Part shown: positions 4,716-28,951 of the stretch, in pieces | Position numbering within the stretch: position 1 is the stretch's first letter | Layout of the letters: each line of letters opens with the position of its first letter | Assembly: GCA_963732385.1 (NCBI GenBank) | Contig: CAVSZB010000005.1 | Coordinates: 39,742-103,741, forward strand | Source: an uncultured bacterium | Lineage (GTDB): Bacteria > Krumholzibacteriota > Krumholzibacteriia > LZORAL124-64-63 | Direction: 5' to 3' | DNA length: 64,000 bases | The notes under the pieces: generated by a model | What the model was told of the DNA's origin: nothing | The model's input: only the letters and a program-made list of their open reading frames with translations | Databases searched by the model: none | Translations under genes and position numbers: made by a program

Positions 4716-4749
4716 GTCGCTCCCTCCCCCCTGTGCGGACGCCGTGCTG

Positions 4750-7134
4750 TCAGGTCCGCGGTTTCCGCTTCAACTGCAGGTCGATCTTCAACCGGTCCCC
4801 CTGCGCGATCGTCACGCGGAAGGAGGTGTACTTGCCGCCGGAGCTGAGCGGCGGGAGCTGTTTCTGGCTGCCGTCGGCGGCCACCTGCGACGCGGTCTGC
4901 ACGGTGAAGTCGTCGCTGCGGACCGTCAGCGTATGCTCGCCTGGCTCGAGACGGCCCGTCCACGGCGTGTTGCCGACCCGCTCCTGATCGATGTCCAGCG
5001 GGACCGGATCGGTCGCCTCGATAGCCACCTCTCCGCCACTGAGCACCATCTCCAGCCGCACGCCCAGGGTCTGCCCGCCGCTGATCCTCACCTTCTTCAT
5101 GACCGGCGCGTAACCCGGCTTCTCGGCCCGCACCTCCCAGTTGTCCGCCGCGGTCAGTTCGGTGACCACCGGAGCGGTGCCGACCGGCCGCCACGGCTCC
5201 CCGGCCTGGCGCACCAGCACGGTGGCGCCGTCGGGCGTGACGCGCACGCGGATCCGGCCGCTGGAGCTCACCGCCGGCGCGGCCGCGGCCTCGCTCGGGG
5301 TCTCGGCGATCGTGGCCGGCGCCGGCACGGCAGCCGCGGTCCCGGGCGCGCCGGTGGCCGCGACAGCGGGCGTTTCGCCCTCTCCCTCCGGAACGAGCGC
5401 GCGCAGCTGTCCGCCCACGGAGGTCGTTTCACTCCCCGCCGCCGTCACGGCGAGCACCGTGTCCGCGTACCCCGCCAGCGACAGCCGGAACTCCCAGGCG
5501 CCGACCGCCAGGTCCGCCAGCACGCAGGCGGTCTGGCGACCGGTCGGGGTGAAATCGGCGGTGCCGGCCCGCCGCATCCAGACCTGCGCCCCTGCCGGCT
5601 CGCTGGCCACCTGTACGATCGCCGTGGCCGGCGGCGCGGTCGGGCCGCGCCGCGTGAGCAGGACCGCGGCCACCGCCACGATCACCACCGCTCCGAGCGC
5701 CATCGCCACCATGCCCCGTCGCCGGCGCAGCCCCTCCAGAATACCGGCCACGGGCGACGCGGCGGCGCGATCCGGCCGCGCCTTGCGCGGCTGACGCGGC
5801 TCCCGCGGCACACGCGGCGCACGCGGCGGCGGCGGCGCAGCCGCAGCCGGCTCCGGCGCGGGCGCCGCGACCGGCTCGGCGGCGCGCCGTGGCGGGCCGG
5901 CCGCCGGCATGACCATGGTGCGTCCCGACTCCACCGGGTCGGCGGCATCGACATCGTCGGGCTCGTGCGCGCCGAGCGGACCGGCGCCCGTGGGCGGGGG
6001 CGCGGCGCGCATCGTGACCCCTGAATCCTCGGCCCGCTTGCGCAGTTCGGCCAGGGCCTGCGAAGCCTTCGGGTTGCGCGGGTCGAGGCGCATGACGTGA
6101 CGGAATTCGCGCAGCGCGTCGGACATGCTGGCCAGGCCGAGGTTCTTGAAGTGGAAGCCGAGCCGCAGGTGCGAGTTGATGGCCTGGTGGCGCAGATCAT
6201 TGGCGGTGGCGGCCGGGTCCCGGGCGAAGCGCTGGAGCAGGTCGCGCCGCAGCTTCACCAGCCCGCCCGACGAGTCGATGCTGTCCATGCACTCCCGCAG
6301 CGCGTGCAGCACCTGGTCCATCGACTGGTACCGCTTGCCGGGATCCTTGGCCAGCATCTTGCTGACCATCTCCTCCATCTCGTTCGTCAGGAGCGGGCAC
6401 GAGGTCTCGGCCAGCGGACGGGGCGAGGCGTTGATGATGCGCTCCTGCACCTCGGTCGGGCTGTCGCCCTGGAACGGCTTCTCGCCGGCGAGGAACTGGT
6501 AGGCCATGACGCCGAGCGAGAAGATGTCGCTGCGGTGATCGACGTCGTCCCGGCCGACCGCCTGCTCCGGCGACATGTACGAGGGGGTGCCGACGATCAT
6601 GCCCGGGCGCGTCAGGTCGTCCGAGGCCATCCGCGCCTGGTCGCCCGTGTTGCGCGCGAGACCGAAGTCGGCCAGCTTCACCTCGCCGCGCCGGTCGATC
6701 AGGATGTTGCTCGGCTTGATGTCGCGGTGGACGACCCCCTCGGCATGCGCCTCGCGCAGCGCGTACGCCACCTCTTCGAGGATCAGCAGGGCGATCTCGG
6801 GCGGCAGCGGCTGGGCCGCGCCGCTCTCGGCGCGCAGCATCTCGAACACCTTGGCCAGGTCGGGCCCGTCGATGAACTCCATCACGATGAAGTAGCAGTC
6901 ATCCTCGCTGCCGAAGTCGATGACCGAGGTGATATTGACGCTGCGCAGCGCCGAGGCCGCCTTGGCCTCCCGTTCGAAGCGCGCGATGAACTGCGTGTCG
7001 CCGGCGAGGCCGGGGTGGAGGATCTTGACCGCGACGGGATAGCCCAGCGTCGTGTGGACCCCCTTGTAGACGGTCGACATCCCGCCCGCGCCGATCTTCT
7101 CGTGCACTTCGAAGCCGTGAAACGCTGTAGCCAC
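4750..7134 (-). CDS. Hanks-type Ser/Thr protein kinase (paralog of the downstream kinase) with TM and PEGA domains
   Basis: Motifs HRDIKPSNILI, DFGLA and GTPSYMSPEQ are present. The N-terminal 300 aa are near-colinear with the 2634..4715 kinase. The C-terminus has two PEGA-like domains. Confidence 0.9.
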   Translation of the reverse strand: MATAFHGFEVHEKIGAGGMSTVYKGVHTTLGYPVAVKILHPGLAGDTQFIARFEREAKAASALRSVNITSVIDFGSEDDCYFIVMEFIDGPDLAKVFEMLRAESGAAQPLPPEIALLILEEVAYALREAHAEGVVHRDIKPSNILIDRRGEVKLADFGLARNTGDQARMASDDLTRPGMIVGTPSYMSPEQAVGRDDVDHRSDIFSLGVMAYQFLAGEKPFQGDSPTEVQERIINASPRPLAETSCPLLTNEMEEMVSKMLAKDPGKRYQSMDQVLHALRECMDSIDSSGGLVKLRRDLLQRFARDPAATANDLRHQAINSHLRLGFHFKNLGLASMSDALREFRHVMRLDPRNPKASQALAELRKRAEDSGVTMRAAPPPTGAGPLGAHEPDDVDAADPVESGRTMVMPAAGPPRRAAEPVAAPAPEPAAAAPPPPRAPRVPREPRQPRKARPDRAAASPVAGILEGLRRRRGMVAMALGAVVIVAVAAVLLTRRGPTAPPATAIVQVASEPAGAQVWMRRAGTADFTPTGRQTACVLADLAVGAWEFRLSLAGYADTVLAVTAAGSETTSVGGQLRALVPEGEGETPAVAATGAPGTAAAVPAPATIAETPSEAAAAPAVSSSGRIRVRVTPDGATVLVRQAGEPWRPVGTAPVVTELTAADNWEVRAEKPGYAPVMKKVRISGGQTLGVRLEMVLSGGEVAIEATDPVPLDIDQERVGNTPWTGRLEPGEHTLTVRSDDFTVQTASQVAADGSQKQLPPLSSGGKYTSFRVTIAQGDRLKIDLQLKRKPRT

Positions 7135-7156
7135 GCCGCCTCCCTTTTCGTCCGGC

Positions 7157-7930
7157 TCAGGTCCGACTCTGCCGGGCCACCACGACCGTGATGTTGTCGG
7201 GGCCGCCCTCCTTGCGCGCCCGCTCCACGAGGAGCTGGCAGGCGCGCTGGGGCAGGTGCATCGAGACGATGCGCAGGATTTCGGGGTCGTGAATCACTTT
7301 GATCAGGCCGTCCGAGCAGAGCACCAGCGTGGCCCCCTCGGCGAAGATGACCGGGTTGCCGATGTCCGGCTCCACGCCCTCCTCGTTGCCGAGCCAGCGC
7401 GTCAGGACGTTCGACAGGCTCTGCTTGTCGGGCGGCAGCGTCTGGCCCTGGCGCCGGTACTCGCCGCCGAGCGAGTGGTCTTCGGTCAGCGGGAAGAGCT
7501 GCCCGTCGTGCGCGAGATAGGCGCGGCAGTCGCCGATGTGGCCGATCACCAGCTCCTGCCCGCGGACCACGGCGGCCGTGCAGGTCGTGGCCATGTTGGC
7601 GCGCAGCGGACTGGCGGCCGCATCGGCGAGGATGGCCCGGTTGGCCTCGAGCAGCGTCTCGTAGAGGGCCGCCCGCAGGTCGGTCGGCACGCCGGCGGCG
7701 AAGAAACGCTCGCCGAAGGTCTGCACCGCGATCCGGCTCGCCACCTCGCCCGCCGCGTTGCCGCCCACGCCGTCGGCCACGACGAGCAGCAGCGCCCCGG
7801 GCGCGGTGTCGCAGGTGAAGATGCCGACCGCGTCTTCGTTCTTCTCGCGCCGGCAGCCGATGTCGCTGAGGCTGGCGTGCAGGAGTCGCAGGCCGGTGGC
7901 CGGTGACGTCGGCGGGCTGTCGTGGTTCAT
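7157..7930 (-). CDS. PP2C-family Ser/Thr phosphatase
   Basis: 257 aa from the ATG at 7930, with GGAGG upstream. It carries the PP2C hallmarks DIGCRREKNEDA, VVADGVGG, GDCRAY and LCSDGL. The start overlaps the upstream gene's stop as ATGA. Confidence 0.9.
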   Translation of the reverse strand: MNHDSPPTSPATGLRLLHASLSDIGCRREKNEDAVGIFTCDTAPGALLLVVADGVGGNAAGEVASRIAVQTFGERFFAAGVPTDLRAALYETLLEANRAILADAAASPLRANMATTCTAAVVRGQELVIGHIGDCRAYLAHDGQLFPLTEDHSLGGEYRRQGQTLPPDKQSLSNVLTRWLGNEEGVEPDIGNPVIFAEGATLVLCSDGLIKVIHDPEILRIVSMHLPQRACQLLVERARKEGGPDNITVVVARQSRT

Positions 7931-9300
7931 GAGCCTCCTCTGCGACCCGGGAGCGCGAGGCCCGCCGGACGCGTTGTCCTGCGATAGACGAGCCCGACCG
8001 CGCCGCCCAGGAGCACGCGATCGCCTTCGCCGATGGTGGCCGTCCGCACCGGCCGTTCGTTGACCTGCGTCCCGTTCGTCGAGCGCAGATCGGTGATGAT
8101 GACCGCGCCCCGCCGCACCCGCAGCACCGCGTGCTGGCGGGAGACCCGCGGCTCCGCCACGACGATCGTGTTGCCGGCCGCCGAGCCGATCGTGGCGCCC
8201 GAGCGCGGCAGGCGGTGCACGGTCTGGCGTCCGCCGGCCGTCACGACCAGTTCGCCGGCCGAGGCGAAGCGCAGCCGCGCCAGCACGACCGCCGCGACGA
8301 TCAGCACCAGGGCCGCCAGCAGCAGCGCCGGCCAGCGGCCGATGCCGCGCTCGGCGAGCGCCCGGCGGGCGCGCAGCGTGCCGTCGGCCGCGAGCTCGCC
8401 GTCGGCGCGCGTCACGCGCAGCGTCACGTCGGCCGGCAGCCCCACGCCCGGCGCGGCAAACCGCGCCGCCAGCGCGCCGTCGACGACGGCCACCAGCCGC
8501 CGCACCGCCATCCCGGCCTCGCCGGCGCCGGCGGTCAGCAGCCGGCCGCCGCTGCCGTCGGCCAGGCGCCGCAGCCGCGCCGCCTCGGCGCCCGCCGCGT
8601 CGGTATCGCCGAGCAGGACGACGTACACCGCCACCCGGGCCGAGTCGGCGGCCGCCAGGCAGCTCACCGACGAGTAGCGGCTGCCCTGCCCCTGCCGGCC
8701 GCTCGTCACCACGATGAGCGTCCGCCGCGCCGGCAGCTCCGGAAAGGCCAGCACGGCCAGCGCGTCCTTCACATTGTCCCACAACGGGACCGGCGTGTCG
8801 CCGGCGAGGTCGGCCGCGGCCGGCGGGCGGGCCGCTCCCGCGCCGCCGCCACCGCCCGGCGCCAGCCGCCGCAGCGCCCGCGGACGCGACCCCGTCGCAT
8901 AGAGTCCGCGCCAGGCGTCGGGCGCGGCCTGCCCCGCGAACGCCGCCAGCGCCTCGCCGCAGGCCGCCACGGCGTCGGCGGGCAGGCCGCGCAGATCGGC
9001 CAGCACCGCCACCGCCGACGGCGCGCCGCCCGGAGCGGGGGCGAACGGCAGCAGCGTCGGCGCGCCCACCGGCCCGCCGCCCGCCGCGAGCGTCAGCGCC
9101 GCGGCCGGCACCGCCAGCGGCAGACCGCCGGCGTCGACCAGCGTGAACGGGAGCTGGTACTGCCCGCCCGTCAGCGGCACGCCCGGCTCGAGCCGCAGCT
9201 CGGCCGCAACCCCCTGGGCCCGCGCGCCGCCCCCCGGCGCCAGCAGCGCAATCACGACGGCCGCCGCCCGCAGCGACCGGAATCCGCGGCGTGAAAGCAT
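7927..9300 (-). CDS. Membrane protein with N-terminal signal peptide and periplasmic domain, one TM, and C-terminal cytoplasmic FHA domain
   Basis: Starts MLSRRGFRSLRAAAVVIALLA (signal). A TM segment WPALLLAALVLIVAAVVLARL follows. The C-terminal FHA signature is ATIGSAAGNTIVV..SRQHA..TDLRSTNGTQVN. Confidence 0.75.
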   Translation of the reverse strand: MLSRRGFRSLRAAAVVIALLAPGGGARAQGVAAELRLEPGVPLTGGQYQLPFTLVDAGGLPLAVPAAALTLAAGGGPVGAPTLLPFAPAPGGAPSAVAVLADLRGLPADAVAACGEALAAFAGQAAPDAWRGLYATGSRPRALRRLAPGGGGGAGAARPPAAADLAGDTPVPLWDNVKDALAVLAFPELPARRTLIVVTSGRQGQGSRYSSVSCLAAADSARVAVYVVLLGDTDAAGAEAARLRRLADGSGGRLLTAGAGEAGMAVRRLVAVVDGALAARFAAPGVGLPADVTLRVTRADGELAADGTLRARRALAERGIGRWPALLLAALVLIVAAVVLARLRFASAGELVVTAGGRQTVHRLPRSGATIGSAAGNTIVVAEPRVSRQHAVLRVRRGAVIITDLRSTNGTQVNERPVRTATIGEGDRVLLGGAVGLVYRRTTRPAGLALPGRRGGS

Positions 9301-9399
9301 GTCCGCGCCGCCCCTCCCCACGGTACGACCAGGTGCGCCGGCGGGAGAATCCCGACCCGCGTGGCGGAGTCTAAGGCGCGGCGGCGGGCATCGCAATCG

Positions 9400-11193
9400 C
9401 TAGTCGACCGGCAGATCGAACTGCTGTGGGCAGCGCATCACCACGGCCGCGGCCAGGAAGCGCGACACGTACTCCCGCGTCTCCTGCGGCAGACACGGCG
9501 CGTCCTTGCGCACGAGGTCCCAGAACTTCCAGCGCGACCACCAGTCGATGTTCATGCGCCGCAGGCAGGCGCGCAGCCCGTTGTCGCCCTTGTTGTAGGC
9601 GGCCACCGCGCACATGCAGTCGTTGGAACCGTAGGCGATCATCAGGTCCTGCAGGTACTGGCAGGCCGCGGTCGTGGCCCGCACCGGGTCCTTGCGCTCG
9701 TCGACGGTGTCGTCGACCCGCAGGCCGTAGTCGCGGGCGGTGCCGCGCATGAGCTGCCACATCCCCATCGCCCCGGCCGGACTCTCGATCTCGGCCTGGT
9801 AGCCGCTCTCGATGAACGGAAGGTAGCAGAAGGCCTGCGGGATCCCCTGCGCCTCGAGCTGCGAGCGCAGCATGTCCAGGTGCGGCCGCGCCCGGCGGAG
9901 CGTGCGCAGGGTGTAGTCGCGCCGGTCGACCGTCCACATCCGCACGGCGCCTTCCACCTCCGCCACCATCGTGCCCGGCAGCGCGTCCAGCCGCGTGTCG
10001 ACCCCGAACTGGGCGAAGATCCGCGACAGCTCCTCTTCCAGGCTGAAGGCCGGCGGCGGCGGGACGGCCGGCGCCGTCTCCTCGGCCGCGGTCACCTCGG
10101 GTTCCGGCGGCGGAGGCGGCGGCGGCCGCCGCCCCTCGCGCAGCTCCTGCAGCAGCGCGAACGGATCGCGGTCCCGCAGCCGATCCCGGTCGATCCGCTT
10201 GGCGGTCTCGCGCAGCGCCTCCCGCACTTCGTCGTCGCTCTGCCGGTCGGGCGGCAGCCGGTCGGCCGCGATCAGCGAGCGGATGGCGATCTCGAACTGC
10301 GCCTTGGCCACGGTGTCGTTGGGCGGCGAAGCGTCGTAGGCCACGAGCGCGTCGTCGAGGCTGCGCCGCGCCTGCTCGACGTACATGTCTTTCGTCCAGA
10401 GCCGCTCCACCCGCTCGCCCGCCGGCCGCAGCGACGGCAGCAGCAGCACCCCCACCAGCACCAGCGCCGCGATCCCCAGCACCATCGCCCCATGCACCGA
10501 AGGCACGGGACACAACTGCACGGTGAAGACGACATCGGCGAACCCGACCCGGTCCCCCACCCGCAGTACCCGCTCCTTGACCGCCTCCCCGTTGACGGAA
10601 GTGCCGTTCCTGCTCCCGGCATCGGTGAGCAGCAGCCGGTCCCCCCGCCGCTCGATCCGCGCATGCACCCCCGAGATCTGCGCCAGCGGCAGCAGCAGAT
10701 CGGCCCCCTCGTCCCGCCCGATCACGCTCAGCTTGCGCGCCAGCAGCAGCGAGGCTCCGCCCGCCCGCGTATCGCGCGACACCAGCCGCAGACAGAGCAG
10801 CCCCGCCGGATCAGGCAGCCGCCGCCCCGCCCCCCGCGCCCGCACCGGCCGCTCGAGCGAGAACACGAACTCCCGCTCCGGCCCCAGCCGCAGCACCGCG
10901 CCGTCCCGCAACGGCGCCCGCCCCACCCGCTCCCCGTCGACAAAGGTCCCGTTGGCGCTCCCCTGGTCCTCGACGAACCAGACCGCCCCCTCCTGCACCA
11001 GCTGCGCATGCCGCCGACTGAGCGCCGCATCGTCGATACAGAGATCGCACCCCGCATCCCGCCCGATCAGCAGCCGCCCCCCGGCCGGCACGCACACGTC
11101 GGCCCCGCCCGCCCGCGGACGCACCCGCGCCCCGCAGGCCGGCCGCGCCCCCGCGCGCCCCCCCGCTCTAAGTCCGCCGGAAGTGTCAGCCAT
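9400..11193 (-). CDS. FHA-FHA-TM-SLT fusion: two N-terminal FHA domains, a TM helix, poly-Pro linker and C-terminal lytic transglycosylase (SLT) domain
   Basis: FHA motifs (GRDAGCDL..SRRHA..GSANGTFV, and IGRDEGADL..SGVHA..GSRNGTSVN), a TM AMVLGIAALVLVGVLLLPSL, a PPPPPPP linker, and the SLT catalytic region ESGYQAEIESPAGAMGMWQLM...YN. Confidence 0.8.
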   Translation of the reverse strand: MADTSGGLRAGGRAGARPACGARVRPRAGGADVCVPAGGRLLIGRDAGCDLCIDDAALSRRHAQLVQEGAVWFVEDQGSANGTFVDGERVGRAPLRDGAVLRLGPEREFVFSLERPVRARGAGRRLPDPAGLLCLRLVSRDTRAGGASLLLARKLSVIGRDEGADLLLPLAQISGVHARIERRGDRLLLTDAGSRNGTSVNGEAVKERVLRVGDRVGFADVVFTVQLCPVPSVHGAMVLGIAALVLVGVLLLPSLRPAGERVERLWTKDMYVEQARRSLDDALVAYDASPPNDTVAKAQFEIAIRSLIAADRLPPDRQSDDEVREALRETAKRIDRDRLRDRDPFALLQELREGRRPPPPPPPEPEVTAAEETAPAVPPPPAFSLEEELSRIFAQFGVDTRLDALPGTMVAEVEGAVRMWTVDRRDYTLRTLRRARPHLDMLRSQLEAQGIPQAFCYLPFIESGYQAEIESPAGAMGMWQLMRGTARDYGLRVDDTVDERKDPVRATTAACQYLQDLMIAYGSNDCMCAVAAYNKGDNGLRACLRRMNIDWWSRWKFWDLVRKDAPCLPQETREYVSRFLAAAVVMRCPQQFDLPVD

Positions 11194-11195
11194 GA

Positions 11196-11627
11196 TCACG
11201 TCGCCGCAGGCAGCGGGAAACACCGGAAGAGGAACCGCGTGCCCCCCATCTGCACCCGGTCACCATCGCGCAGCGCCTGCTCGGTAATCCGCACGTCGTT
11301 CACGAGCGTCCCGTTGGTGGAGTTGAGGTCCCGCAGCACGTACTGCCCCCCCCCGAACACCACCTCCGCATGCCGACTGGAAAGGAACCGATCATCCCCG
11401 ATGATGACATCGCACCCCGCCACCGACCCGAAGCGAAGGGTCCCGGCCGTCAACCGAAAGTCCCGCCCCCGCTGCGCCCCACTGACAGCCACGAGCCACG
11501 CCACCAACTCCTGCCGCCCCACCGGACTCATGAGGACAGCCGTCTTGTCGAGATCGTCCACCGTCATCGCCCCCGGCGCCGCCACCGGCACCACAGGAGG
11601 AGGAGCAGCAGGAGGCGCAGGCGGCAC
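11196..11627 (-). CDS. FHA-domain protein (probably the C-terminal part of a zinc-ribbon/FHA protein)
   Basis: FHA signature FRLTAGTLRFGSVAGCDVIIGDDRFLSSRHAEVVFGGGQYVLRDLNSTNGTLVN. The N-terminus is a Pro/Ala-rich low-complexity stretch. Confidence 0.7.
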   Translation of the reverse strand: MPPAPPAAPPPVVPVAAPGAMTVDDLDKTAVLMSPVGRQELVAWLVAVSGAQRGRDFRLTAGTLRFGSVAGCDVIIGDDRFLSSRHAEVVFGGGQYVLRDLNSTNGTLVNDVRITEQALRDGDRVQMGGTRFLFRCFPLPAAT

Positions 11628-11690
11628 ATAGGCCGGAGGAGCCAGCAGGCGCAGCAGGAGCCGCCGGCGGAATGACCGGCCGCGCCCCGA

Positions 11691-12158
11691 TCACCGTGAT
11701 GTCATCCCCGCCCCCACCGGGTCCCCCCACCCCCGGCCCCGTCGGCACCCGACGGATCGGTTCGGAAACCGGCCGCGCCACCGGCGCATGCTCGATCCGC
11801 CGCACCGGCTCCGGCGCCCGCTGAAAAGGTTGAGGAGCAGGCGGCACCGCGCCAAGGGAGGAGGCGCAGCAGGAGCAGCCGGACAGCAGGAGCAGCCGGC
11901 CAAGTCGGCGGCCCCGCCGCCGGCGGCAGGAGACGTATAGGCAGGAGCCCCAGCCCCCGCATGAGGCGCCGGCGGCATCGGCTCCGCCGCCCGAGCCCCC
12001 CGCCCCGCCGCCGAACTCCCCCGCTCGTCATCTACAGGGATGAAATCCCCGCTAAGATCGCTCCCCCCCTCACAATAAGGACAGCTATCCCAAGACGGAT
12101 CCAGGAGATGCCCGTTCGCACAATGCCGCACCTTGTTCTTCCGCTTCCCGAACAGCAT
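11691..12158 (-). CDS. Zinc-ribbon domain protein with Pro/Ala-rich tail (probable N-terminal part of the FHA protein, split by frame changes)
   Basis: MLFGKRKNKVRHCANGHLLDPSWDSCPYCEG (CxxGH..CPYC zinc ribbon) followed by a low-complexity linker. Three overlapping frames are open across 11390-11850. Confidence 0.5.
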   Translation of the reverse strand: MLFGKRKNKVRHCANGHLLDPSWDSCPYCEGGSDLSGDFIPVDDERGSSAAGRGARAAEPMPPAPHAGAGAPAYTSPAAGGGAADLAGCSCCPAAPAAPPPLARCRLLLNLFSGRRSRCGGSSMRRWRGRFPNRSVGCRRGRGWGDPVGAGMTSR

Positions 12159-12598
12159 GCTCCCCCATCTCCCCCGCAGGACGGCCAAGCCAGCTAACTT
12201 TGTGGCTTGAGAAGGGTTCGGGGCAGTCTACCAACGGGGGTGCGGGGATTGTCAACTTACTGGGCGGAGGACTTGTTCCCAACCCAGCTTCGATCGTAAG
12301 GCCGGCGGGCAGCGTGCTCTCGCCATTTATTGCCCAGGACGCTGCTAGGATTGCCGAGATGGCTTCGAGTCACCCGTCCGCAAGCACTTCAACACGCTGA
12401 TGGCCGTGCTCATGTCGAGCCGGAACATCTGCGGAACGCAAAGCCCCAGCCAACCTACGAGGGCAGTTGATTGCAGCCAGCCCTATAGATTTACACTGCC
12501 ATGCGCTTAGACTATGCTGGTTCAGCCTTGTGGGCCAGGGGGGCCAGCGGGCTCCGTTGCAGTCACCTGATTCATGTTAACCACCGTGGGAGTGGGCA

Positions 12599-13315
12599 GT
12601 GTTTCATTGGATGATGTCGCCGCTTTCCCGACATGTCGACGGGGGCTTCGGCGCCATCGGAGACGCCTACAAGCGCGCCGCCGACAACCTGGATGAACCC
12701 GCTTCCTTAGCGAACCCGAATGGCCACTTGCCGGTGAACTTTTTGCGCCGGCATGCGATCGAGCTCTTCCTCAAATCGATGATTATGGTGCTGCATCGTT
12801 GCTTGAGCGATCCGCAAGACGAGCGCGACGGAGATGCAATGCCGGAAATACAGGTCGATGGTCGGTCGACACCCCTGTCACGCATCCATCGTATCCAGGC
12901 GCTTTTCGACTACTTTATGCAGTTGGCTACGTCTAACCGAGATCGATTTCTGGATGCCGACAAGACGGACTGGGCTAAAGTTCCGAGCGAGCTCGCCGGC
13001 TGGATAGCCGCGATTGAACGAGCAGACGCATCAAGTACTTTCTTCCGCTATCCTGAGCCGCCCAACCGTGCCGCCGTGACAGACAAGTCCGCATGGCGCG
13101 AGGTGCATCCGGAAGACATCGATGCACGGCTGAGCAGGCCAGGTCGTAGCCCTACTGGGCTCTTCATTCTCATGGGCGAGGACGAATGCGTGCGGCTTGC
13201 TTGCGCGCACGAAGGACTTCCGCTCCAGGAACTGTCATTGTCGCTGAAGCAGGCCACCGAGATGTTGTCAGGCGCTCATATCGGACTTAGGGCCGAACTT
13301 GCAGGAGGGTGGTAG
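12599..13315 (+). CDS. Hypothetical protein (238 aa), first gene of low-GC island
   Basis: GTG start with GGGAG about 6 nt upstream. GC is ~55% versus ~70% in the flanks. No recognisable motif. It lies 240 bp upstream of the DUF262 gene. Confidence 0.55.
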   Translation: MFHWMMSPLSRHVDGGFGAIGDAYKRAADNLDEPASLANPNGHLPVNFLRRHAIELFLKSMIMVLHRCLSDPQDERDGDAMPEIQVDGRSTPLSRIHRIQALFDYFMQLATSNRDRFLDADKTDWAKVPSELAGWIAAIERADASSTFFRYPEPPNRAAVTDKSAWREVHPEDIDARLSRPGRSPTGLFILMGEDECVRLACAHEGLPLQELSLSLKQATEMLSGAHIGLRAELAGGW

Positions 13316-13556
13316 TGGCCGAGAATAGCAGCATCAACGAACCGAAGGCACCGCCAGGCGATTGACCTGCGCCAGGCCAGCGCCAATCCGGCTTCGCAAG
13401 CCTTTCTTGCGAGCCATTCGCTACGTAGGTCAGAACAAGCAGAGTACCACAACCGCCCTTCGCGAATGTAAGTGCTGACATCGCAAATTACGGCGGCAGC
13501 CACCAAGTTGGATGGAATCCCGCAATCCAACAGGCACCATTCAAGGAGCATGCTGA

Positions 13557-14654
13557 GTGGAGATCGCAAAGAAACTGACTCCCACCACAAAAACTATCGA
13601 CGAACTAACCGAATTGTTCGACAACGGGCGCCTCGACCTAACGCCGGACTTTCAGAGAAACTCCGTCTGGCCTGGCCCGGCTAAAGCATATCTTGTCGAC
13701 ACCATCCTCAACGACATGCCAATCCCCCTCCTCTTCCTCACTCGAGAGAAGGACACCAATTCCAATCGCCTTCGATACCGTGTGATTGACGGGCAACAAA
13801 GAATTCGTGCCGCCATGGCTTTTCTTCACAATAGGTTCCCGATACCAAATCAATATAACCTTCAGCGCCCCAACGGCACCAAGTTCAAGCGCGTCCGGTT
13901 CCGCAATCTCTCTGAAGCGCTCAAGGAGCGCTTCATTGGGTACAGCTTCGTTGTATCTGAGCTAAGCGGATTCACGGATGAGGAGTTGCGGGACATATTT
14001 GTTCGAATCAACAAGTATGTAGTGCGCCTCAATCCCCAGGAGTTGCGGGACGCAAAGGCACCAGGCCCCTTTAGGCACTTCATCGACCAGTGTTCGCAGC
14101 GTGACATCTGGAACAAGGTCGGCATTTTCACTGGCAAGAATCGCGACCGGAAGCGCGACAAGGAGTTCATCGCTGAGTTGGCGATTCTTCTTCTCGATGG
14201 GCCGCAAGACAAGAAGGGCTCACTCGATCTCTATTACGCAGCAGTGCCCGATCAATTTTCTGGCGACGACCTCCAAGATGACCTTATCGGAACGGCCGAG
14301 ACGATTCACCAGTTGCTAGGAGCAAGCCCCCCTTCAACTCTAATTCGCCTACCTGTGTTTTATGGGCTGGTCGGCGCAATCTACAATATTCGATCAGACG
14401 AGGACGATGCGAAGAGGCTAGATGCGTCACTAACGGAAGCATATGATGCACTGGAAGAATTGTCCGACTTGGCAGATGACGTCGCTAAGGATGGTGCGGT
14501 TCCACCGGCAGACCTCACAGAGGAAGCGAAAGCCCGCCGCACTGACGCAGGGATATTTCGTCGTTCCATCAGCCAGCAGACCGACAATGTTCGGCCTCGC
14601 ACTGCGTGCATCGAGGTCCTTGAGCGCGTGATTCGATCTGCATTCGTTGAGTAG
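13557..14654 (+). CDS. DUF262 (ParB/Srx-like nuclease/NTPase fold) domain protein, 365 aa
   Basis: GTG start with AAGGAG 8 nt upstream. DUF262 motifs DFQRNSVW, AYLVDTILNDMPIPLLF and YRVIDGQQRIRA are present. No DUF1524/HNH C-terminal domain was recognised. GC is ~50%. Confidence 0.75.
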   Translation: MEIAKKLTPTTKTIDELTELFDNGRLDLTPDFQRNSVWPGPAKAYLVDTILNDMPIPLLFLTREKDTNSNRLRYRVIDGQQRIRAAMAFLHNRFPIPNQYNLQRPNGTKFKRVRFRNLSEALKERFIGYSFVVSELSGFTDEELRDIFVRINKYVVRLNPQELRDAKAPGPFRHFIDQCSQRDIWNKVGIFTGKNRDRKRDKEFIAELAILLLDGPQDKKGSLDLYYAAVPDQFSGDDLQDDLIGTAETIHQLLGASPPSTLIRLPVFYGLVGAIYNIRSDEDDAKRLDASLTEAYDALEELSDLADDVAKDGAVPPADLTEEAKARRTDAGIFRRSISQQTDNVRPRTACIEVLERVIRSAFVE

Positions 14655-14659
14655 ATGTC

Positions 14660-15655
14660 GTGCAAGACTTCATCAATCGTTACGAAGAAACCAGAGACCG
14701 CTTGGAAAGGGCAGCCCCTCGTCTTGAGGAGCAGTTAAAGACTGCTCTAAGAGATCACCGCATTCTCTTTCTTGCGGTTTCTGTACGCGTGAAGACTCTC
14801 GAGTCGGCGCTGCGCAAAATCAGCAAGAAGAAGTACAGCGATCCCTGGCAACAGATGATGGACTTGATCGCTGGGAGAATCTTTACCTATTTTCGACCGG
14901 ACGCCACCCAAGTGGAATCAGTTATCAGAGACTATTTTGATGTTCACGAGGAACACTCCAAGAACAAGTCAGATGATCTTGAATTCAACAAGTTCGGCTA
15001 CACATCCAGACACTTGGTATGTTCTCTGCGCGAGCGGTTTCCCGACCTTCGATTGAAGTCTCTAATTCCGGAAGGGATGATGTTCGAGCTTCAGATCCGA
15101 TCCGTCCTTGAACATGGATGGGCTGAGATAGAGCACGAACTGGTCTACAAGTCCGGTACGGAACCTCCAGACGCTATCCGAAGAAGATTTGCTGCCTCTG
15201 CGGCCGCACTGGAAATAGTCGAGCGCGAGTTCGACAGCCTTCGCGACTTTGAATTTCAAATGGCGGTGGATAGGTCGTTAGTCATTTCTGGCAATCTTGG
15301 TGCTCCCCTAGATAGGGCTTGGTTTATCGCCGTGCTGATGCGGGAATATCCTAGTCGCAGCACTTGGAGTCCCGATCCGCAGAAGAATGTCTTCTTCCGC
15401 AGTTATGAGCTCGTGCTCATCGAATCGCTTCGAGCGGTCGGTGTATCTACTGTTCGGGACTTTCTCAACAGGCTTCGCAAGCCAAAGCCTAGAAGAATGG
15501 TTCGCGAGTACGCTAAGAAGCGAGGGATACTCGAGGCCGACGTTTCTCATCTTCCAATCGCGATCTTCGCGACGTTTTATGACTCTGCGATCTCCATACC
15601 TGGAGAAATCAAACAAGTTGCTGACTCCACCATGCGCGAGCTACTGGCTTTATAG
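14660..15655 (+). CDS. RelA/SpoT synthetase-fold nucleotidyltransferase (small-alarmone-synthetase / toxSAS-like) with ~150-aa C-terminal extension
   Basis: Motifs VRVKTLESALRKISKK, DLIAGRIFTYF, FGYTSRHLV and ELQIRSVLEHGWAEIEHELVYK match the RelA/SpoT (PF04607) synthetase core. GTG start lies 5 nt after the DUF262 stop. GC is ~50%. Confidence 0.8.
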   Translation: MQDFINRYEETRDRLERAAPRLEEQLKTALRDHRILFLAVSVRVKTLESALRKISKKKYSDPWQQMMDLIAGRIFTYFRPDATQVESVIRDYFDVHEEHSKNKSDDLEFNKFGYTSRHLVCSLRERFPDLRLKSLIPEGMMFELQIRSVLEHGWAEIEHELVYKSGTEPPDAIRRRFAASAAALEIVEREFDSLRDFEFQMAVDRSLVISGNLGAPLDRAWFIAVLMREYPSRSTWSPDPQKNVFFRSYELVLIESLRAVGVSTVRDFLNRLRKPKPRRMVREYAKKRGILEADVSHLPIAIFATFYDSAISIPGEIKQVADSTMRELLAL

Positions 15656-15781
15656 CGGAGAAAGCCCCCACACGTGGTGCGAGGAGCTGCCTCACTCTAC
15701 GATCGGCTCCTGAGGTGGAACCGTGTCCTCGCGGCATAAGATCTCTCTGGAGGCCTGCTTGAAACGAACCAGACGATCGGG

Positions 15782-16258
15782 CAGTCGCTGGGGCTGACGG
15801 CAAGGCAGATGCGGATCGGGCGGGTGACGGTGGCCATGCGGTACGAGGCGAAGGGTGGGGAGTATTCGCGGAAGTTCAGCCACTATGAGATCTCGCAGCA
15901 GCTCAAGTTCATCGAGGAGGATGTGGCGCGGTACGATGAGTTTCGGGAGGTGCTCCTGGGAGTGCCGGGGTTGCAGGTGAATCAAGAGTTCGAGGCGAGC
16001 GGGGCGGAGTCGGCGAAGAACGACATGATGATCGAGGCACTGCGGTCGGCCAGACGGAAGGCGGAGGCGCTGGCGGCGGTCGTGGGAGCCAATGTCGGGC
16101 GGGCGATTTCGATCAGCGAGTTCAAGCCCAATCCGACGGATCGCGACATCGACACCGTGGCCTTTCTGCGCGGAGTGCCGTTCCGCGGCCCCGAGCCGGA
16201 CGGGATCGAGATCCGGGGGCGGATCTACGCCGTGTTCGAACTCGAGTAGGCAGCGGGC
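15782..16258. repeat. Direct repeat copy 1 (~477 bp, ~97% identical to 18362..18838; offset exactly 2580 bp)
   Basis: Base-by-base comparison of 15782-16258 with 18362-18838. Mismatches cluster in the first ~30 bp. Copy 1 encodes only the C-terminal 146 aa of the SIMPL protein. Confidence 0.85.
15809..16249 (+). pseudogene. Truncated duplicate of SIMPL/DUF541 gene (3' fragment, no signal peptide)
   Basis: The 146-aa translation is near-identical to residues ~102-247 of the 18086..18829 product. Confidence 0.7.
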
Positions 16259-16327: not shown

Positions 16328-18028
16328 ATGACCGCCGAGGAGCTCGCGAGGCTGATCGAGGCCGGCGAAACGCTTGCGATCGAGTTCAAGGGCGAGGAGC
16401 GTGAGGGCCTCTCGGATGCCGAACTGGTGGAGACGGTTGTCTGCCTCGCCAACAGGCCGGGTGGTGCCGATGCAGCATGGTTGCTCGTCGGCGTCGAGGA
16501 CGACGGCCGCGTGACGGGCGCGCGCCGGCGACATGCCGACCGCACCGATCCCAATAGGCTGCAGGCACTTGTGGCGAACCGGACGAGGCCGGCGCTGTCG
16601 GTGCGAGTTGACGTGATCGATATCGAGGGCAAGCAAGTCGTTGTCATCGACGTGCCTTTCGCCCGCTCGCCGGTCGGGACGACGGATGGCAAGTACGTGC
16701 GCCGGGCGCTGGGCGGCGACGGTCGACCGGCATGCGTGCCCATGCACTTTCACGAGATGCAATCGCACCAGGCCGATCGCGGCCTGCTCGATCATTCCGC
16801 GCTCGCGCTGCCGGACGCTCGCTGGCAGGATCTCGACCCGCTCGAATTCGAGCGTTTTCGCCGCTTCGTGCGCGAGAGTCAGGGCCGAGGCGATGCGAGC
16901 CTCGTGGAGTTGGCGGATATCGAGCTTGCCAAGGCGCTGGGCGCCGTGCAGGCCAACCATGACGTGTCTGCCGTGCACGTGCTTGGCCTGCTGCTCTTCG
17001 GCCGCGAAGAGGCGCTGCGCCGGCTGCTGCCGACTCATGAGGTCGCCTTCCAGGTTCTGTCGGGCCAGAAGGTGGAGGTCAACGACTTCTTCCGCTGGCC
17101 GCTGCTGCGTGTCGTGGATGAGCTGCTGGCGCGATTCCGGGCTCGCAATCGGGAGGAAGAACTGCTGGTCGGCATGCTGCGGATCGCCGTGCCCGATTAC
17201 GCCCCCGCTGCCTTTCGGGAGGGGGCTGCGAACGCCCTGATCCACCGCGACTACACTCGGCTCGGCGCCGTGCATGTGCAGTGGCGCGAGGACAGCATCG
17301 AGATCGCCAATCCCGGAGGCTTCCCGGAGGGGGTCCGCCTCGACAATCTGCTGGTCACCCAGCCGCGGCCCCGCAATCCCCTCCTGGCCGATGCGTTCAA
17401 GCGCGCCGGCATCGTCGAGCGCACCGCTCGTGGCATCGACACCATCTTCCACGAGCAGCTTCGCAACGGCCGTCCGGCGCCGAACTACGGGCGCAGCAAC
17501 GAGAGCGGGGTCGTGCTTGTCCTGCCGGGTGGCAAGGCCAATCTGGCCTTCGCGCGTCTCGTCGCCGAAGAGAGCCAGGCCGCCCGCCCCCTGTCCTTGG
17601 ATGACCTGTTGCTCCTCAACCACCTCTGGCTGGAGCGCCGCCTGAGTACGACCGAGTCCGCAGTGCTGATACAGAAACCCGAGGCGGAGGCGCGGACCCG
17701 CCTTCAGCGCCTGGTCGAAGCGGGACTCGTCGAAGCGCGCGGCGAGCGCAAGGGCCGGACCTGGCACCTCTCGGCTCCCGCCTACCGGCGCCTTGGGGAG
17801 CCTGGCGCCTACGTCCGCCAGCGCGGATTCGAACCGCTCCAGCAGGAGCAGATGGTGCAGCAATTCGTGGAAAAGCACGGTTCCATCAGCCGCGCCCAGG
17901 TGGCCGAGCTTTGCCGGCTCACCCCTCCGCAGGCCTATCGATTGCTCCAACGGCTTGCAAAGAAAGAACTTCTGTCTCGGCTGGGCTCTCGGGGGCGGGC
18001 CGTCCGCTACGGGCTGAAGGCACGATGA
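16328..18028 (+). CDS. AlbA_2 (Schlafen-like divergent AAA) + HATPase_c_4 + wHTH protein (often annotated as a transcriptional regulator or RecG-like)
   Basis: N-terminal ETLAIEFK...LANRPGGADAAWLLVGVEDDGRVTG (AlbA_2), central ANALIHRDY (HATPase_c_4), and a C-terminal winged-helix region. Confidence 0.7.
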   Translation: MTAEELARLIEAGETLAIEFKGEEREGLSDAELVETVVCLANRPGGADAAWLLVGVEDDGRVTGARRRHADRTDPNRLQALVANRTRPALSVRVDVIDIEGKQVVVIDVPFARSPVGTTDGKYVRRALGGDGRPACVPMHFHEMQSHQADRGLLDHSALALPDARWQDLDPLEFERFRRFVRESQGRGDASLVELADIELAKALGAVQANHDVSAVHVLGLLLFGREEALRRLLPTHEVAFQVLSGQKVEVNDFFRWPLLRVVDELLARFRARNREEELLVGMLRIAVPDYAPAAFREGAANALIHRDYTRLGAVHVQWREDSIEIANPGGFPEGVRLDNLLVTQPRPRNPLLADAFKRAGIVERTARGIDTIFHEQLRNGRPAPNYGRSNESGVVLVLPGGKANLAFARLVAEESQAARPLSLDDLLLLNHLWLERRLSTTESAVLIQKPEAEARTRLQRLVEAGLVEARGERKGRTWHLSAPAYRRLGEPGAYVRQRGFEPLQQEQMVQQFVEKHGSISRAQVAELCRLTPPQAYRLLQRLAKKELLSRLGSRGRAVRYGLKAR

Positions 18029-18145
18029 AAACACACATCGTGGCACAGAAACGCACGCGTGCATTGAAAACGCACGAAGTCGACAATGCGGCGCAATGGG
18101 CGAGCGCGCATTTGGACGCACCTCCTCGCCCAAAGGAGAATCGCC

Positions 18146-18829
18146 ATGCGATCCCTGTCATTCCTGATTCTGCTGGCGTGCATCGTGACAGCCCCGACTC
18201 TGGCTTCGAGCGCCGGGACCATCACCGTCATGGGCGACGCGTCGACGGTGGTCGGCGCGGACCGCGTCATCTGGAAGCTGTCGGTGACGACGAAGGACAC
18301 GAAGCTGGAGCAGGCGACGGCGCAGGCTGATGGGCTGCTGTCCCAGGCGGTGACTATCGGGGAGTCGCTTGGGCTGGCGAAGGAGCAGATGCGGATCGGG
18401 CGGGTGACGATGGCCATGCGGTACGAGGCGAAGGGTGGGGAGTATTCGCGGAAGTTCAGCCACTATGAGATCTCGCAGCAGCTCAAGTTCATCGAGGAGG
18501 ATGTGGCGCGGTACGATGAGTTTCGGGAGGTGCTCCTGGGAGTGCCGGGGTTGCAGGTGAATCAAGAGTTCGAGGCGAGCGGGGCGGAGTCGGCGAAGAA
18601 CGACATGATGATCGAGGCACTGCGGTCGGCCAGACGGAAGGCGGAGGCGCTGGCGGCGGTCGTGGGAGCCAAGGTCGGGCGGGCGATTTCGATCAGCGAG
18701 TTCAAGCCCAATCCGACGGATCGCGACATCGACACCGTGGCCTTTCTGCGCGGAGTGCCGTTCCGCGGCCCCGAGCCGGACGGGATCGAGATCCGGGGAC
18801 GGATCTACGCCGTGTTCGAACTCGAGTAG
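18146..18829 (+). CDS. SIMPL/DUF541 (BP26/Omp28-like) periplasmic protein, full length with signal peptide
   Basis: Signal peptide MRSLSFLILLACIVTAPTLASSAG (ATG at 18146; the ORF frame is open from 18086). The 3' ~450 bp duplicate 15782-16258. Confidence 0.7.
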   Translation: MRSLSFLILLACIVTAPTLASSAGTITVMGDASTVVGADRVIWKLSVTTKDTKLEQATAQADGLLSQAVTIGESLGLAKEQMRIGRVTMAMRYEAKGGEYSRKFSHYEISQQLKFIEEDVARYDEFREVLLGVPGLQVNQEFEASGAESAKNDMMIEALRSARRKAEALAAVVGAKVGRAISISEFKPNPTDRDIDTVAFLRGVPFRGPEPDGIEIRGRIYAVFELE

Positions 18830-26921: not shown

Positions 26922-27752
26922 ATGCCGGCACCGAATGCGCAGATGTTTTCCCAGCTCACCCGCACGAATTTCAGCGCGAAGGGCATTCTGATTCCGCTGG
27001 ACTGGGCGCCGCCGGGCGAGCAGTTCCCCGACGCGTTCGCGCCGGCGGAGCGGCAGGTCGCGCCAGGGTCGCCCACCGAGCTGTTCCATGCGGCCACCCT
27101 CAACAAATACCATGTCGATGCCGCCAGCGGCATGAGCGACAGGCTCGGCACCTACATCGACGGGGTCTGCGGGGCGATCTGCGGGGCGATCGGCAACTGG
27201 ATGCAGACCGCGATGGTCGCCGGGGCGCTCATCAACGGGCCGGTCGGGACGCTGCTGCCGGGCGGGGTCGTGGGGCCGCCTCTGCTGCCGCTCATTTTGG
27301 GGCAGGCGCCCAGGACGACGCCGCTCGAGACGCAGTACTCGCTGGCGATCGCCAACGCGTTCAGTTCGGCCTGGCAGGCGTGGCAGACGGGGCTGACCGG
27401 GATGCTGAGCTATCCGGCATTCGCGGCGGTGCCGTCGCCGGTGGCGCCGCCGATGCCCAACGTGCCGATGCCGCTGGTGACCTTCCCGTCGGCCGGCGAG
27501 GCGATGCTCTCCCCCGCCACGCTGCAGGCCTCGATGGTCGGGATGCTGGGCAATCCGACGGCGCAGCACGCGCCCGAGCTGTTCGACGCGCTGGCGCAGG
27601 CGTTCGGCATGGTGTTCCAGATGTTCAAGTCGACGACCATCGTGCAGAATGTGCTCGGCACCGGGCCGGTGCCGACGTTCGCGCCGCCGTTCGTGCCGGT
27701 GGGTCCGGTGCTGGCCGGCACCGTCATCCCCACGCCCGGGGTGTTCGTGTGA
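26922..27752 (+). CDS. Hypothetical protein (276 aa) between PAAR and DUF2169; candidate PAAR-associated cargo or chaperone
   Basis: No signal peptide. Pro/Ala-rich C-terminal half. Position only. Confidence 0.45.
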   Translation: MPAPNAQMFSQLTRTNFSAKGILIPLDWAPPGEQFPDAFAPAERQVAPGSPTELFHAATLNKYHVDAASGMSDRLGTYIDGVCGAICGAIGNWMQTAMVAGALINGPVGTLLPGGVVGPPLLPLILGQAPRTTPLETQYSLAIANAFSSAWQAWQTGLTGMLSYPAFAAVPSPVAPPMPNVPMPLVTFPSAGEAMLSPATLQASMVGMLGNPTAQHAPELFDALAQAFGMVFQMFKSTTIVQNVLGTGPVPTFAPPFVPVGPVLAGTVIPTPGVFV

Positions 27753-27777
27753 GCGACCGGCGGAGGGTCGCAGCGAC

Positions 27778-28902: not shown

Positions 28903-28951
28903 CGCGCCCGGCGTGCCGGCCGTCCGCCGTTTCGCGGCACGGAGTTGAGCG

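Follow-up and report, generated by a model that had tools for sequence, protein, structure and literature searches.

A low-GC segment beside type VI secretion genes joins a conserved DUF262–Rel gene pair, a candidate sensor–effector system, to an unrelated HEPN-fold gene

Introduction

A segment of markedly low GC content lies beside genes of a type VI secretion system (T6SS) in contig CAVSZB010000005.1 (assembly GCA_963732385.1) of an uncultured bacterium of the Krumholzibacteriota. The DNA analyzed here, referred to below as the window, is a stretch of 64,000 nucleotides of this contig (positions 39,742 to 103,741 of the forward strand). The segment carries three co-directional genes, and the locus raises the question of whether these belong together and what they do. 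A first-pass annotation had described them as a horizontally acquired set inserted at 12189-15790 between two T6SS segments and had suspected an anti-phage or toxin function.

All three genes were recovered as open reading frames (ORFs) of the + strand, and the DUF262 and RelA/SpoT domains named for two of them were confirmed by Pfam. As argued below, the island consists of two unrelated accessory modules, a lone HEPN-fold gene (p238) and a self-contained two-gene DUF262–Rel operon. The three genes do not form one set, because the p238 family is not linked to Rel or DUF262 genes and because the other DUF262–Rel pairs occur without p238. The pair was classified as a putative DUF262-sensor system with an effector of the toxic small alarmone synthetase (toxSAS) type, a combination of known kinds. 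The features concerned, in coordinates of the window, are as follows.

12040..15771, no strand: low-GC segment with refined limits (100-bp GC drops near 12040 and recovers near 15770; GC about 0.55 against 0.70 in the host DNA)
12599-13315, + strand: p238, 238 aa, standalone HEPN-fold protein of an unclassified family
13557-14654, + strand: DUF262 partner, 365 aa, ParB-DUF262 NTPase domain (residues 17-166, approximately) followed by a conserved C-terminal half, NsnA-like
14660-15655, + strand: Rel, 331 aa, RelA/SpoT-type nucleotide pyrophosphokinase, starting 5 nt past the DUF262 stop codon

Conservation of the DUF262–Rel Pair

A Rel gene was located directly downstream of the DUF262 gene, on the same strand, at all 17 loci of the DUF262 family (16 loci elsewhere and the window). 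Where start codons were unambiguous, the gaps between the two genes ranged from -4 to +14 nt, with 5 nt in the window. Some of the counts reported in this study rest on in-house ORF calling in high-GC or error-prone contigs of metagenome-assembled genomes. The pair was present in Acidobacteriota, Actinomycetota, Alphaproteobacteria, Armatimonadota and other groups.

The same linkage was observed from either side. All Rel homologs on long contigs had a GmrSD_N gene directly upstream. A scan of species-representative genomes yielded 80 relatives of Rel, among which the 11 with both a C-terminal match and a recognizable DUF262 had the latter directly upstream. In the reverse look-up, three of three near-full-length DUF262 partners examined were followed directly by Rel, including the one from Paenarthrobacter sp. 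A20.

The two proteins also appear to have diverged together, as their pairwise identities were correlated (r = 0.86, 91 pairs). In a neighbor-joining tree of 125 Rel relatives, the DUF262-linked proteins fell into one nearly monophyletic clade of 19 tips, 14 of them linked. The five unlinked tips comprised one gene starting at a contig end (L010), two longer proteins (L018 and L082) and two full-length orphans (L025 and L084).

Both orphans possess the C-terminal domain typical of the clade and have no DUF262 gene nearby. The gene at L084:7875-9041 retains all motifs and follows two Ser/Thr kinase genes with overlapping ends, and the one at L025:7959-9020 has an H-to-Q substitution in GYxSxH and follows an MFS transporter gene. 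These orphans argue against constitutive lethality of the enzyme when no partner is present, and this would fit an activating or licensing partner better than a classical antitoxin.

The GC content of the pair was below that of its flanks at each of the 16 other loci, with a mean difference of 0.079. No third conserved gene was detected, as no other family was present in more than 3 of 13 neighborhoods. On these comparisons of sequence, the pair is a conserved and co-evolving two-gene module, accessory and patchily spread.

Across the loci, the neighbors included integrases, a relaxase, Prim-Pol, a transposase, and restriction-modification and toxin–antitoxin (TA) genes. A DDE transposase and TA genes stood beside the pair at L001, and type IIG/III restriction-modification genes and helicases at L003 and L217. 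At L216:4051-10071 a tyrosine integrase, an HTH_17 excisionase-like gene and a DUF3644 gene lie at a distance of 2 kb from the pair, which is probably carried by an integrative element there. A uniform defense-island context was sought among the 13 neighborhoods and was not found.

An intact pair is also carried by a cultured isolate, Paenarthrobacter sp. A20 (L215:8001-10032, JALJWH010000001.1), with a GC content of 0.49 against 0.61 in the flanks. The pair of this isolate adjoins a divergently oriented AAA_15/AAA_21 ATPase gene and a gene of 278 aa.

Other shared partners were considered for the Rel relatives of about 350 aa and were rejected, as their upstream genes were mutually unrelated (transporters, HemL, ParE/GyrB and others). 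No YejK-type partner was observed upstream of these relatives.

The DUF262 Protein

The 365-aa protein matched Pfam GmrSD_N/DUF262 (1.1e-20) and, in PADLOC, NsnA (5.5e-37) and PD-T4-2_A (3e-21). The alignment to NsnA covered residues 9-228 of the protein and positions 48-260 of the 385 in the profile. GmrSD_N was the only Pfam domain found at E <= 0.1, and a DUF1524 nuclease domain was absent.

Across 13 DUF262 partners, three motifs were invariant: QRxxxW (Q33, R34, W38), DGQQR (D78-R82) and FxRxN (F148, R150, N152). Further invariant blocks (QELR, EGPQDKK and RQTDNxxPR) were located in the C-terminal half. Profile search gave at least 1353 members of the family at E <= 1e-10, more than 120 of them near full length, at about 336 aa. 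On the basis of these motifs and matches, the protein is proposed to be a sensor or regulator responding to DNA or nucleotides.

The Rel Protein

Rel matched Pfam RelA_SpoT (3.8e-18), NCBIfam YjbM (2.9e-14, with 53 bits against a cutoff of 320 bits) and the PADLOC candidate PDC-S33 (3e-8). The motifs of the synthetase (SYNTH) domain, RxKxxxSxxxK, DxxGxR, GYxSxH and ExQxR[ST], were all kept, and the G-loop tyrosine (Y114) was invariant.

In the AlphaFold2 model (pLDDT 83), an N-terminal α/β synthetase domain (about residues 1-165) leads into a long helix (171-194), after which residues 197-331 form a helical C-terminal domain, termed the C-domain below. The synthetase fold begins at the start of the protein, and no additional N-terminal domain, whether PAAR, MIX, Rhs or another delivery domain, was present. 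The nearest structural counterparts of the N-terminal domain were RelP and RelQ, two (p)ppGpp synthetases, ahead of Tas1. The C-domain was detectable by sequence only within the DUF262-linked clade.

The Rel profile retrieved 2009 proteins at E <= 1e-30 from a representative library of 1.84 billion proteins. About 100 of the best 150 clusters (50% identity), with lengths of 335-350 aa, aligned almost from end to end, and the best identities in the species-representative genome collection were 33-42%. Rel is proposed to be the effector of the pair.

The HEPN-Fold Gene p238

A four-helix up-down HEPN fold was found in p238. In the gene calls of public databases, the start of the gene is the ATG at 12614, which gives a protein of 233 aa. 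The invariant residues of the family were R51, H52, E55, K59, H66, H97, D143, R150, Y151 and K163, with H227 near-invariant; the canonical Rx4-6H spacing of HEPN RNases was not evident among them, as judged by residue position along the sequence.

No match to p238 was obtained in Pfam, NCBIfam or PADLOC, PD-T4-2_B included. In the comparison with defense-system profiles that the first-pass annotation had suggested, PADLOC matches were obtained for the DUF262 protein (NsnA and PD-T4-2_A) and, through a candidate profile, for Rel.

Linkage of the p238 family was evaluated at 81 loci (80 metagenomic loci and L004). A Rel gene was near the family member at none of them, and a DUF262 gene at a single locus, distant and on the opposite strand. 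Conversely, none of the other 16 DUF262–Rel loci contained a p238 homolog. The view of the three genes as a single set, taken in the first-pass annotation, is not tenable on these counts, and p238 is an independent accessory gene.

The commonest neighbor of the p238 family was an ORF of about 295 aa resembling PD-(D/E)xK proteins, present at just 7 of 39 loci. At these seven loci (e.g., L132:6715-7596), this ORF begins only a few nucleotides past the HEPN gene and bears a D...ELK signature, and the two may form a separate two-gene system inside the family. Resolvase and relaxase genes were close to members of the p238 family at a few loci.

Two signals flank p238 within the segment:

12490..12518, + strand: weak match to a sigma-70-like promoter, some 80 nt ahead of p238 (such matches were no commoner than in shuffled sequences)
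13390..13412, + strand: terminator-like hairpin and T-run in the 241-bp gap after p238 (weak; not significantly above shuffled sequences)

The hairpin weakly suggests that p238 is a transcription unit of its own.

Composition of the Segment

In 400-bp windows, GC content was 0.69-0.84 up to about 12.0 kb, 0.49-0.61 at 12.0-15.8 kb and 0.65-0.70 beyond. The region 12189-15790 had a GC content of 0.548, compared with 0.703 for the remainder of the 64-kb window. In 1-kb windows within the island (n = 11), the mean was 0.542 and the maximum 0.587, and in those outside it (n = 234) the mean was 0.704, with a standard deviation of 0.030 and a minimum of 0.625, so that the island stood at z = -5.4.

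Other measures gave the same picture. The tetranucleotide distance to the remainder peaked in 3.6-kb windows over the island (0.588 against a median of 0.173). GC content at third codon positions (GC3) was about 0.85-0.97 in host ORFs and 0.65, 0.61 and 0.56 in the ORFs of the island. The fall in GC that had first drawn attention to the locus was therefore reproduced by sliding-window GC, GC3 and tetranucleotide distance, and a uniform composition was not seen.

Contigs assembled from short reads of an independent run (Logan) carried p238 together with the DUF262 gene, and also the 3' part of the DUF262 gene together with Rel and about 180 bp past the Rel stop codon. Because these independent contigs carry the same segments, a misassembly or chimera peculiar to this contig is excluded. 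The segment is compositionally foreign and was acquired horizontally, as the first-pass annotation had proposed; it is an ordinary small acquired segment. At the level of the window itself, the true foreign cargo can now be told apart from the surrounding T6SS cluster, and what was taken for a three-gene island is resolved into two modules.

Comparison with Known Systems

DUF262 proteins act as sensing and regulating NTPases in GmrSD/BrxU and in SspE, and in Menshen the part of the sensor has been proposed for NsnA (PMC12065111; PMC10952713). The likeness of the pair to Menshen (NsnABC) lies in its first gene. NsnA was the best PADLOC match of the DUF262 protein, which has the QRxxxW, DGxQR and FxxxN motifs and a non-nuclease C-terminal region (PMC12065111), and the DUF262 gene is the first of its operon, like that of NsnA. 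In contrast, the gene downstream encodes not the ABC-type ATPase NsnB (AAA_15 and DUF3696) but a RelA_SpoT protein, and no ATPase gene was present in the island or conserved in the 13 neighborhoods. NsnC, an effector with an inactive-PIN (inPIN) N-terminal domain and a nuclease, is also lacking. The pair has two genes rather than three, and its predicted chemistry is nucleotide pyrophosphorylation, not cleavage of RNA or DNA.

GmrSD/BrxU and SspE share with the pair an N-terminal DUF262 NTPase with a DGQQR pocket, which in those systems recognizes modified DNA and governs the activity of an effector domain (PMC10952713). The pair differs from them in having no DUF1524 nuclease of the His-Me finger/HNH type, and its effector would be encoded separately and belong to another class of enzymes. 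Resemblance to PD-T4-2 is limited to the match of the DUF262 protein to PD-T4-2_A, which is weaker than that to NsnA, and to the HEPN-fold gene adjoining it in the window. However, p238 gave no match to PD-T4-2_B, the gene order is reversed and the adjacency is not conserved elsewhere.

On the side of the enzyme, Rel has the SYNTH fold and the catalytic motifs of the RSH synthetases. Enzymes of the toxSAS type are effectors of TA and anti-phage systems and make ppGpp or ppApp, or pyrophosphorylate tRNA (PMC7229694; PMC9712102). Like the toxSAS TA systems and CapRel (FaRel, FaRel2, PhRel, PhRel2, CapRel), the pair has a SYNTH-only enzyme encoded in a conserved bicistron on accessory DNA (PMC7229694, PMC9712102). 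The catalytic motifs of these enzymes, including the G-loop tyrosine, are conserved in Rel, and the bicistron by which they were recognized was present at 17 of 17 loci. Tas1-type T6SS effectors, which come with a dedicated immunity gene and a conserved linkage to T6SS genes, differ from Rel, which has no N-terminal delivery domain (PAAR/DUF4150-like), and the pair occurs elsewhere in non-T6SS contexts.

The closest parallel in layout is offered by PANGU type I, which consists of a DNA-bound protein and a toxSAS whose N-terminal SYNTH domain is joined through a helical linker to a partner-binding domain at the C-terminus (bioRxiv 10.64898/2026.04.06.716658). The PANGU enzyme is inert until its partner binds the C-terminal domain, whereupon pppGpp is made (bioRxiv 10.64898/2026.04.06.716658). 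Like Pag1A, a nucleoid-associated protein (NAP), and Pag1B/GRel, the pair forms a two-gene operon with the putative DNA-binding protein first and a toxSAS-type enzyme of about 340 aa second. The three-part layout recurs in the model of Rel, and the pairs co-evolve. The orphan Rel proteins suggest that the enzyme may be non-toxic alone, as reported for PANGU. In contrast to PANGU, the partner is a ParB-DUF262 NTPase rather than a YejK-like NAP, no NAP family was found among the top neighbor families, and the C-domain of Rel is not consistently acidic or DNA-mimicking.

Proposed Function and Alternative Explanations

The function that we favor, at roughly even chances, is that of a sensor–effector system of growth arrest, most likely acting by anti-phage abortive infection, in which the DUF262 protein would sense a DNA or nucleotide cue and, through the C-domain of Rel, license alarmone synthesis that arrests the infected cell. 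The DUF262 protein, whose C-terminal half is partly aligned by PADLOC to the DNA-binding region of NsnA, would bind DNA and nucleotides and detect a DNA state associated with infection, such as modified, foreign or damaged DNA. It would then contact the clade-specific C-domain, and Rel would be switched on or released. Pyrophosphate would be moved by Rel from ATP to a purine nucleotide, and a toxic (p)ppGpp- or (p)ppApp-type alarmone, together with depletion of ATP and GTP, would stop growth before the phage cycle is completed. Pyrophosphorylation of tRNA 3' ends would be a less likely output of Rel.

The sensor and effector roles, the interaction through the C-domain, the trigger, the product and the anti-phage role are what we infer by analogy with the literature, because DUF262 proteins have precedents as sensors, toxSAS enzymes as effectors and PANGU as a similar layout. 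More tentatively, and with distinctly less confidence, the pair may represent a new class of immune or conflict system. An NTP-dependent DNA sensor of the ParB family would then license an alarmone synthetase directly, and a signal from the state of the DNA (modified, foreign or damaged) would give rise to a burst of (p)ppGpp, (p)ppApp or another, non-canonical pyrophosphorylated nucleotide.

Several observations weigh against the sensor–effector proposal. The neighborhoods are heterogeneous and many are of a housekeeping character (tRNA synthetase, RNR, FtsH, sugar transporters), and enrichment in defense islands was not demonstrated. None of 50 IMG/VR viral contigs carrying Rel relatives had a DUF262 partner, a count on which a phage origin of the pair was also rejected. 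Frameshifted copies were observed at three loci, affecting the DUF262 gene at L017 and Rel at L054 and L217; either errors of long-read assembly or decay may account for them, and little weight is given to them.

The proteins themselves add further points to this side of the balance. The alignment to NsnA stops at residue 228 of 365, and identification of the C-terminal half as ParBDB is only partly supported. No significant match to a solved relative of the DUF262 protein was found in the PDB by single-sequence or profile search, and the C-domain of Rel likewise matched nothing in the PDB. The closeness of Rel to RelP and RelQ does not prove that nucleotides are its substrate. Finally, the net charge of the C-domain ranged from -17 to +9 among members, and its relation to the charge of the partner was weak and positive (Spearman 0.52, p = 0.09). 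A conserved acidic, DNA-mimicking C-domain or a charge complementarity as in PANGU is rejected on this range and on the non-negative correlation.

A classical TA system of type II (or IV) would be the main alternative in the same functional field, with Rel as a constitutively active toxSAS and the DUF262 protein as an antitoxin, acting by binding or by hydrolysis of the toxic nucleotide, in the addiction to or stabilization of mobile DNA. The tight bicistron with the putative antitoxin first speaks for it, as it was by conserved bicistrons of this sort that the toxSAS TA systems were recognized (PMC7229694), and so do the proximity of pairs to other TA genes, their occurrence on mobile DNA and the co-evolution of the two proteins. 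However, the upstream protein has 336-365 aa, its three NTP-binding motifs are invariant and its C-terminal half is conserved, which makes it far larger and more enzyme-like than known toxSAS antitoxins. Rel proteins of the same clade also exist without DUF262, one with all motifs (L084) and one with a single substitution (L025); an intact Rel lies beside the disrupted DUF262 gene of L017, although the latter is perhaps an assembly error; and the comparable PANGU pair is explicitly not a TA system (bioRxiv 10.64898/2026.04.06.716658). A TA function is accordingly rated unlikely, albeit with an appreciable share of the probability. Ordinary signaling is a far weaker candidate. In that case Rel would be a common small alarmone synthetase (SAS) of the stringent response and the DUF262 protein a DNA-bound regulator with no role in conflict, as would be allowed by a catalytic domain most like those of RelP and RelQ, which are housekeeping SAS enzymes, and by the many housekeeping neighborhoods. 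Such a role, which we regard as improbable, is difficult to reconcile with a patchy distribution across phyla, an atypical GC content at 16 of 16 loci and in the window, a YjbM score of 53 bits against the 320 demanded, and the linkage of some copies to integrase or transposase genes. Moreover, the DUF262 proteins so far characterized all belong to defense systems (PMC12065111, PMC10952713).

The remaining two alternatives draw on the immediate surroundings of the pair in the window. A joint system of all three genes, in which p238 would be a second, RNase-type effector added to a PD-T4-2-like core and an alarmone synthetase, is suggested by the composition of PD-T4-2 itself, a DUF262 protein with a HEPN protein (PMC10952713), by the PD-T4-2_A match at 3e-21 and the HEPN fold of p238, and by the adjacency, shared direction and low GC of the genes. 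It was rejected on linkage, given that p238-family loci were devoid of Rel and had DUF262 only once in 81, far off and on the other strand. The absence of a PADLOC match for p238, PD-T4-2_B included, and of its homologs from the 16 other pairs, the 241-bp gap with a terminator-like hairpin between p238 and the pair, and the GC content of p238 (about 0.59 against 0.52 for the pair) point the same way, and its probability is very small. Smaller still is that of a T6SS effector, with Rel as a Tas1-like toxin synthesizing (p)ppApp and exported through the neighboring T6SS, and the DUF262 protein, p238 or both as immunity proteins or adaptors. Rel has no delivery domain and is nearer to RelP and RelQ than to Tas1; the pair occurs at 16 other loci, with no T6SS family among the 25 commonest neighbor families; the GC and GC3 of the island are sharply unlike those of the T6SS genes; and the conserved partner is a cytoplasmic ParB-like NTPase, unlike known immunity proteins.

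If it represents a new class of this kind, the pair would provide the first link between a ParB/DUF262 switch and an RSH enzyme, and DNA-bound proteins would have, besides PANGU and independently of it, a second way of controlling toxSAS effectors. If the sensor–effector proposal is true, an alarmone synthetase would be a new effector class for DUF262-centered defense systems, whose effectors have so far all been nucleases, and a ParB-like NTPase would be a new sensor class for toxSAS systems. The family is not rare, and it occurs mostly in soil Acidobacteriota, Actinomycetota and Proteobacteria, which are poorly covered by experimental defense screens. As the cultured Paenarthrobacter sp. A20 carries the pair, the proposal is directly testable.

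No description of DUF262 paired with an alarmone or RelA/SpoT enzyme was found in the literature searched, where co-mentions of DUF262 and ppGpp were incidental, and no system model in PADLOC v2 covers the pair. Earlier, unnamed sightings of the pair may exist, since the Menshen survey mentions further DUF262-centered systems without naming them.

Borders and Flanking Genes

The first-pass annotation had noted no integrase, transposase or tRNA gene at the borders, and this holds, as neither an integrase or transposase ORF (ORF list) nor a tRNA (ARAGORN) was detected there. Rfam elements were absent from 11.5-19.5 kb. The locus thereby differs from integrase-mediated islands, which would have a site-specific recombinase gene, a target in a tRNA, a tmRNA or the 3' end of a gene, and short direct repeats on either side; its sole repeat, the SIMPL duplication of 487 bp, lies beyond the right border. 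The features to the right of the segment are as follows.

15772..16258, + strand: left copy of the 487-bp direct repeat, 3' part of a SIMPL/DUF541 gene, with the truncated ORF 15809-16249
16328-18028: gene with AlbA_2 (Schlafen-like), HATPase_c_4 and a C-terminal winged helix-turn-helix
18352..18838, + strand: right copy of the 487-bp direct repeat, within the full-length SIMPL gene 18086-18829

The two copies were about 99% identical past a mismatch-rich first part of about 35 bp, and the AlbA_2/HATPase_c_4 gene is bracketed between them. The truncated ORF covers only positions 60-161 of the Pfam SIMPL profile. The right edge of the low-GC DNA coincides exactly with the start of the left copy, and the repeat does not flank the island. 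An attL/attR arrangement or a simple Campbell insertion is at odds with this geometry, because the full SIMPL gene sits on the far side. A tandem duplication of the [AlbA_2-SIMPL] unit, the first copy of which was largely replaced by the incoming foreign DNA, would fit it.

The onset of the GC drop near 12040 falls, at 100-bp resolution, inside the first codons of a divergently oriented Zn-ribbon/FHA gene (11196-12158, - strand) that adjoins the island. The first 40 or so codons of this gene (12040-12158) already have low GC3. It is interrupted by an in-frame TGA at 11691-11693, and a different frame gives a better reading of its middle part; either the gene is a pseudogene or the assembly contains indels here.

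Placement of the island between two T6SS segments was accurate for the left segment only, which adjoins it. The right segment begins 11.7 kb away, behind genes of host-like GC, and the island alone can therefore not be said to split contiguous T6SS blocks. These intervening genes comprise the SIMPL fragment, AlbA_2, SIMPL, RsgA, an AbiEii-like gene and methyltransferases. Of the defense-type neighbors that had been claimed, AlbA_2 is indeed close by (Pfam 4e-14), and the AbiEii-like assignment proved only marginal (Pfam 9e-5; PADLOC 3e-4). The only PADLOC matches of the AlbA_2 protein were partial alignments to pAgo- and SIR2-Aga-associated domains (1e-12 to 1e-8).

The left T6SS segment, on the - strand, contains TssK, two Ser/Thr kinases and three FHA proteins and ends at about 12.16 kb. 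Its first gene is listed here.

2-1285, - strand: TssK, left T6SS segment

Next to TssK, an unusual regulatory block (2634-11259, - strand) combines two PEGA-domain Ser/Thr kinases with the three FHA proteins. In one of the latter (9400-11259, - strand), two FHA domains are fused to an SLT lytic transglycosylase domain. The sole ARAGORN call in the 64 kb, a 71-nt tRNA-Ser(GCT) at 8281-8351 (- strand), lies inside an FHA-domain ORF in DNA of about 80% GC; a class II tRNA-Ser would be longer, and the call is probably false.

The right T6SS segment extends from 27.5 kb and contains DUF2169, PLD, VgrG, ClpV, TssF, TssC, TssB and TssA. At 27481-32041, upstream of the VgrG/ClpV/TssF/TssCBA block, the DUF2169 gene is followed by a gene for a PLD-domain protein of 1030 aa, and the two are likely a T6SS adaptor and phospholipase effector pair.

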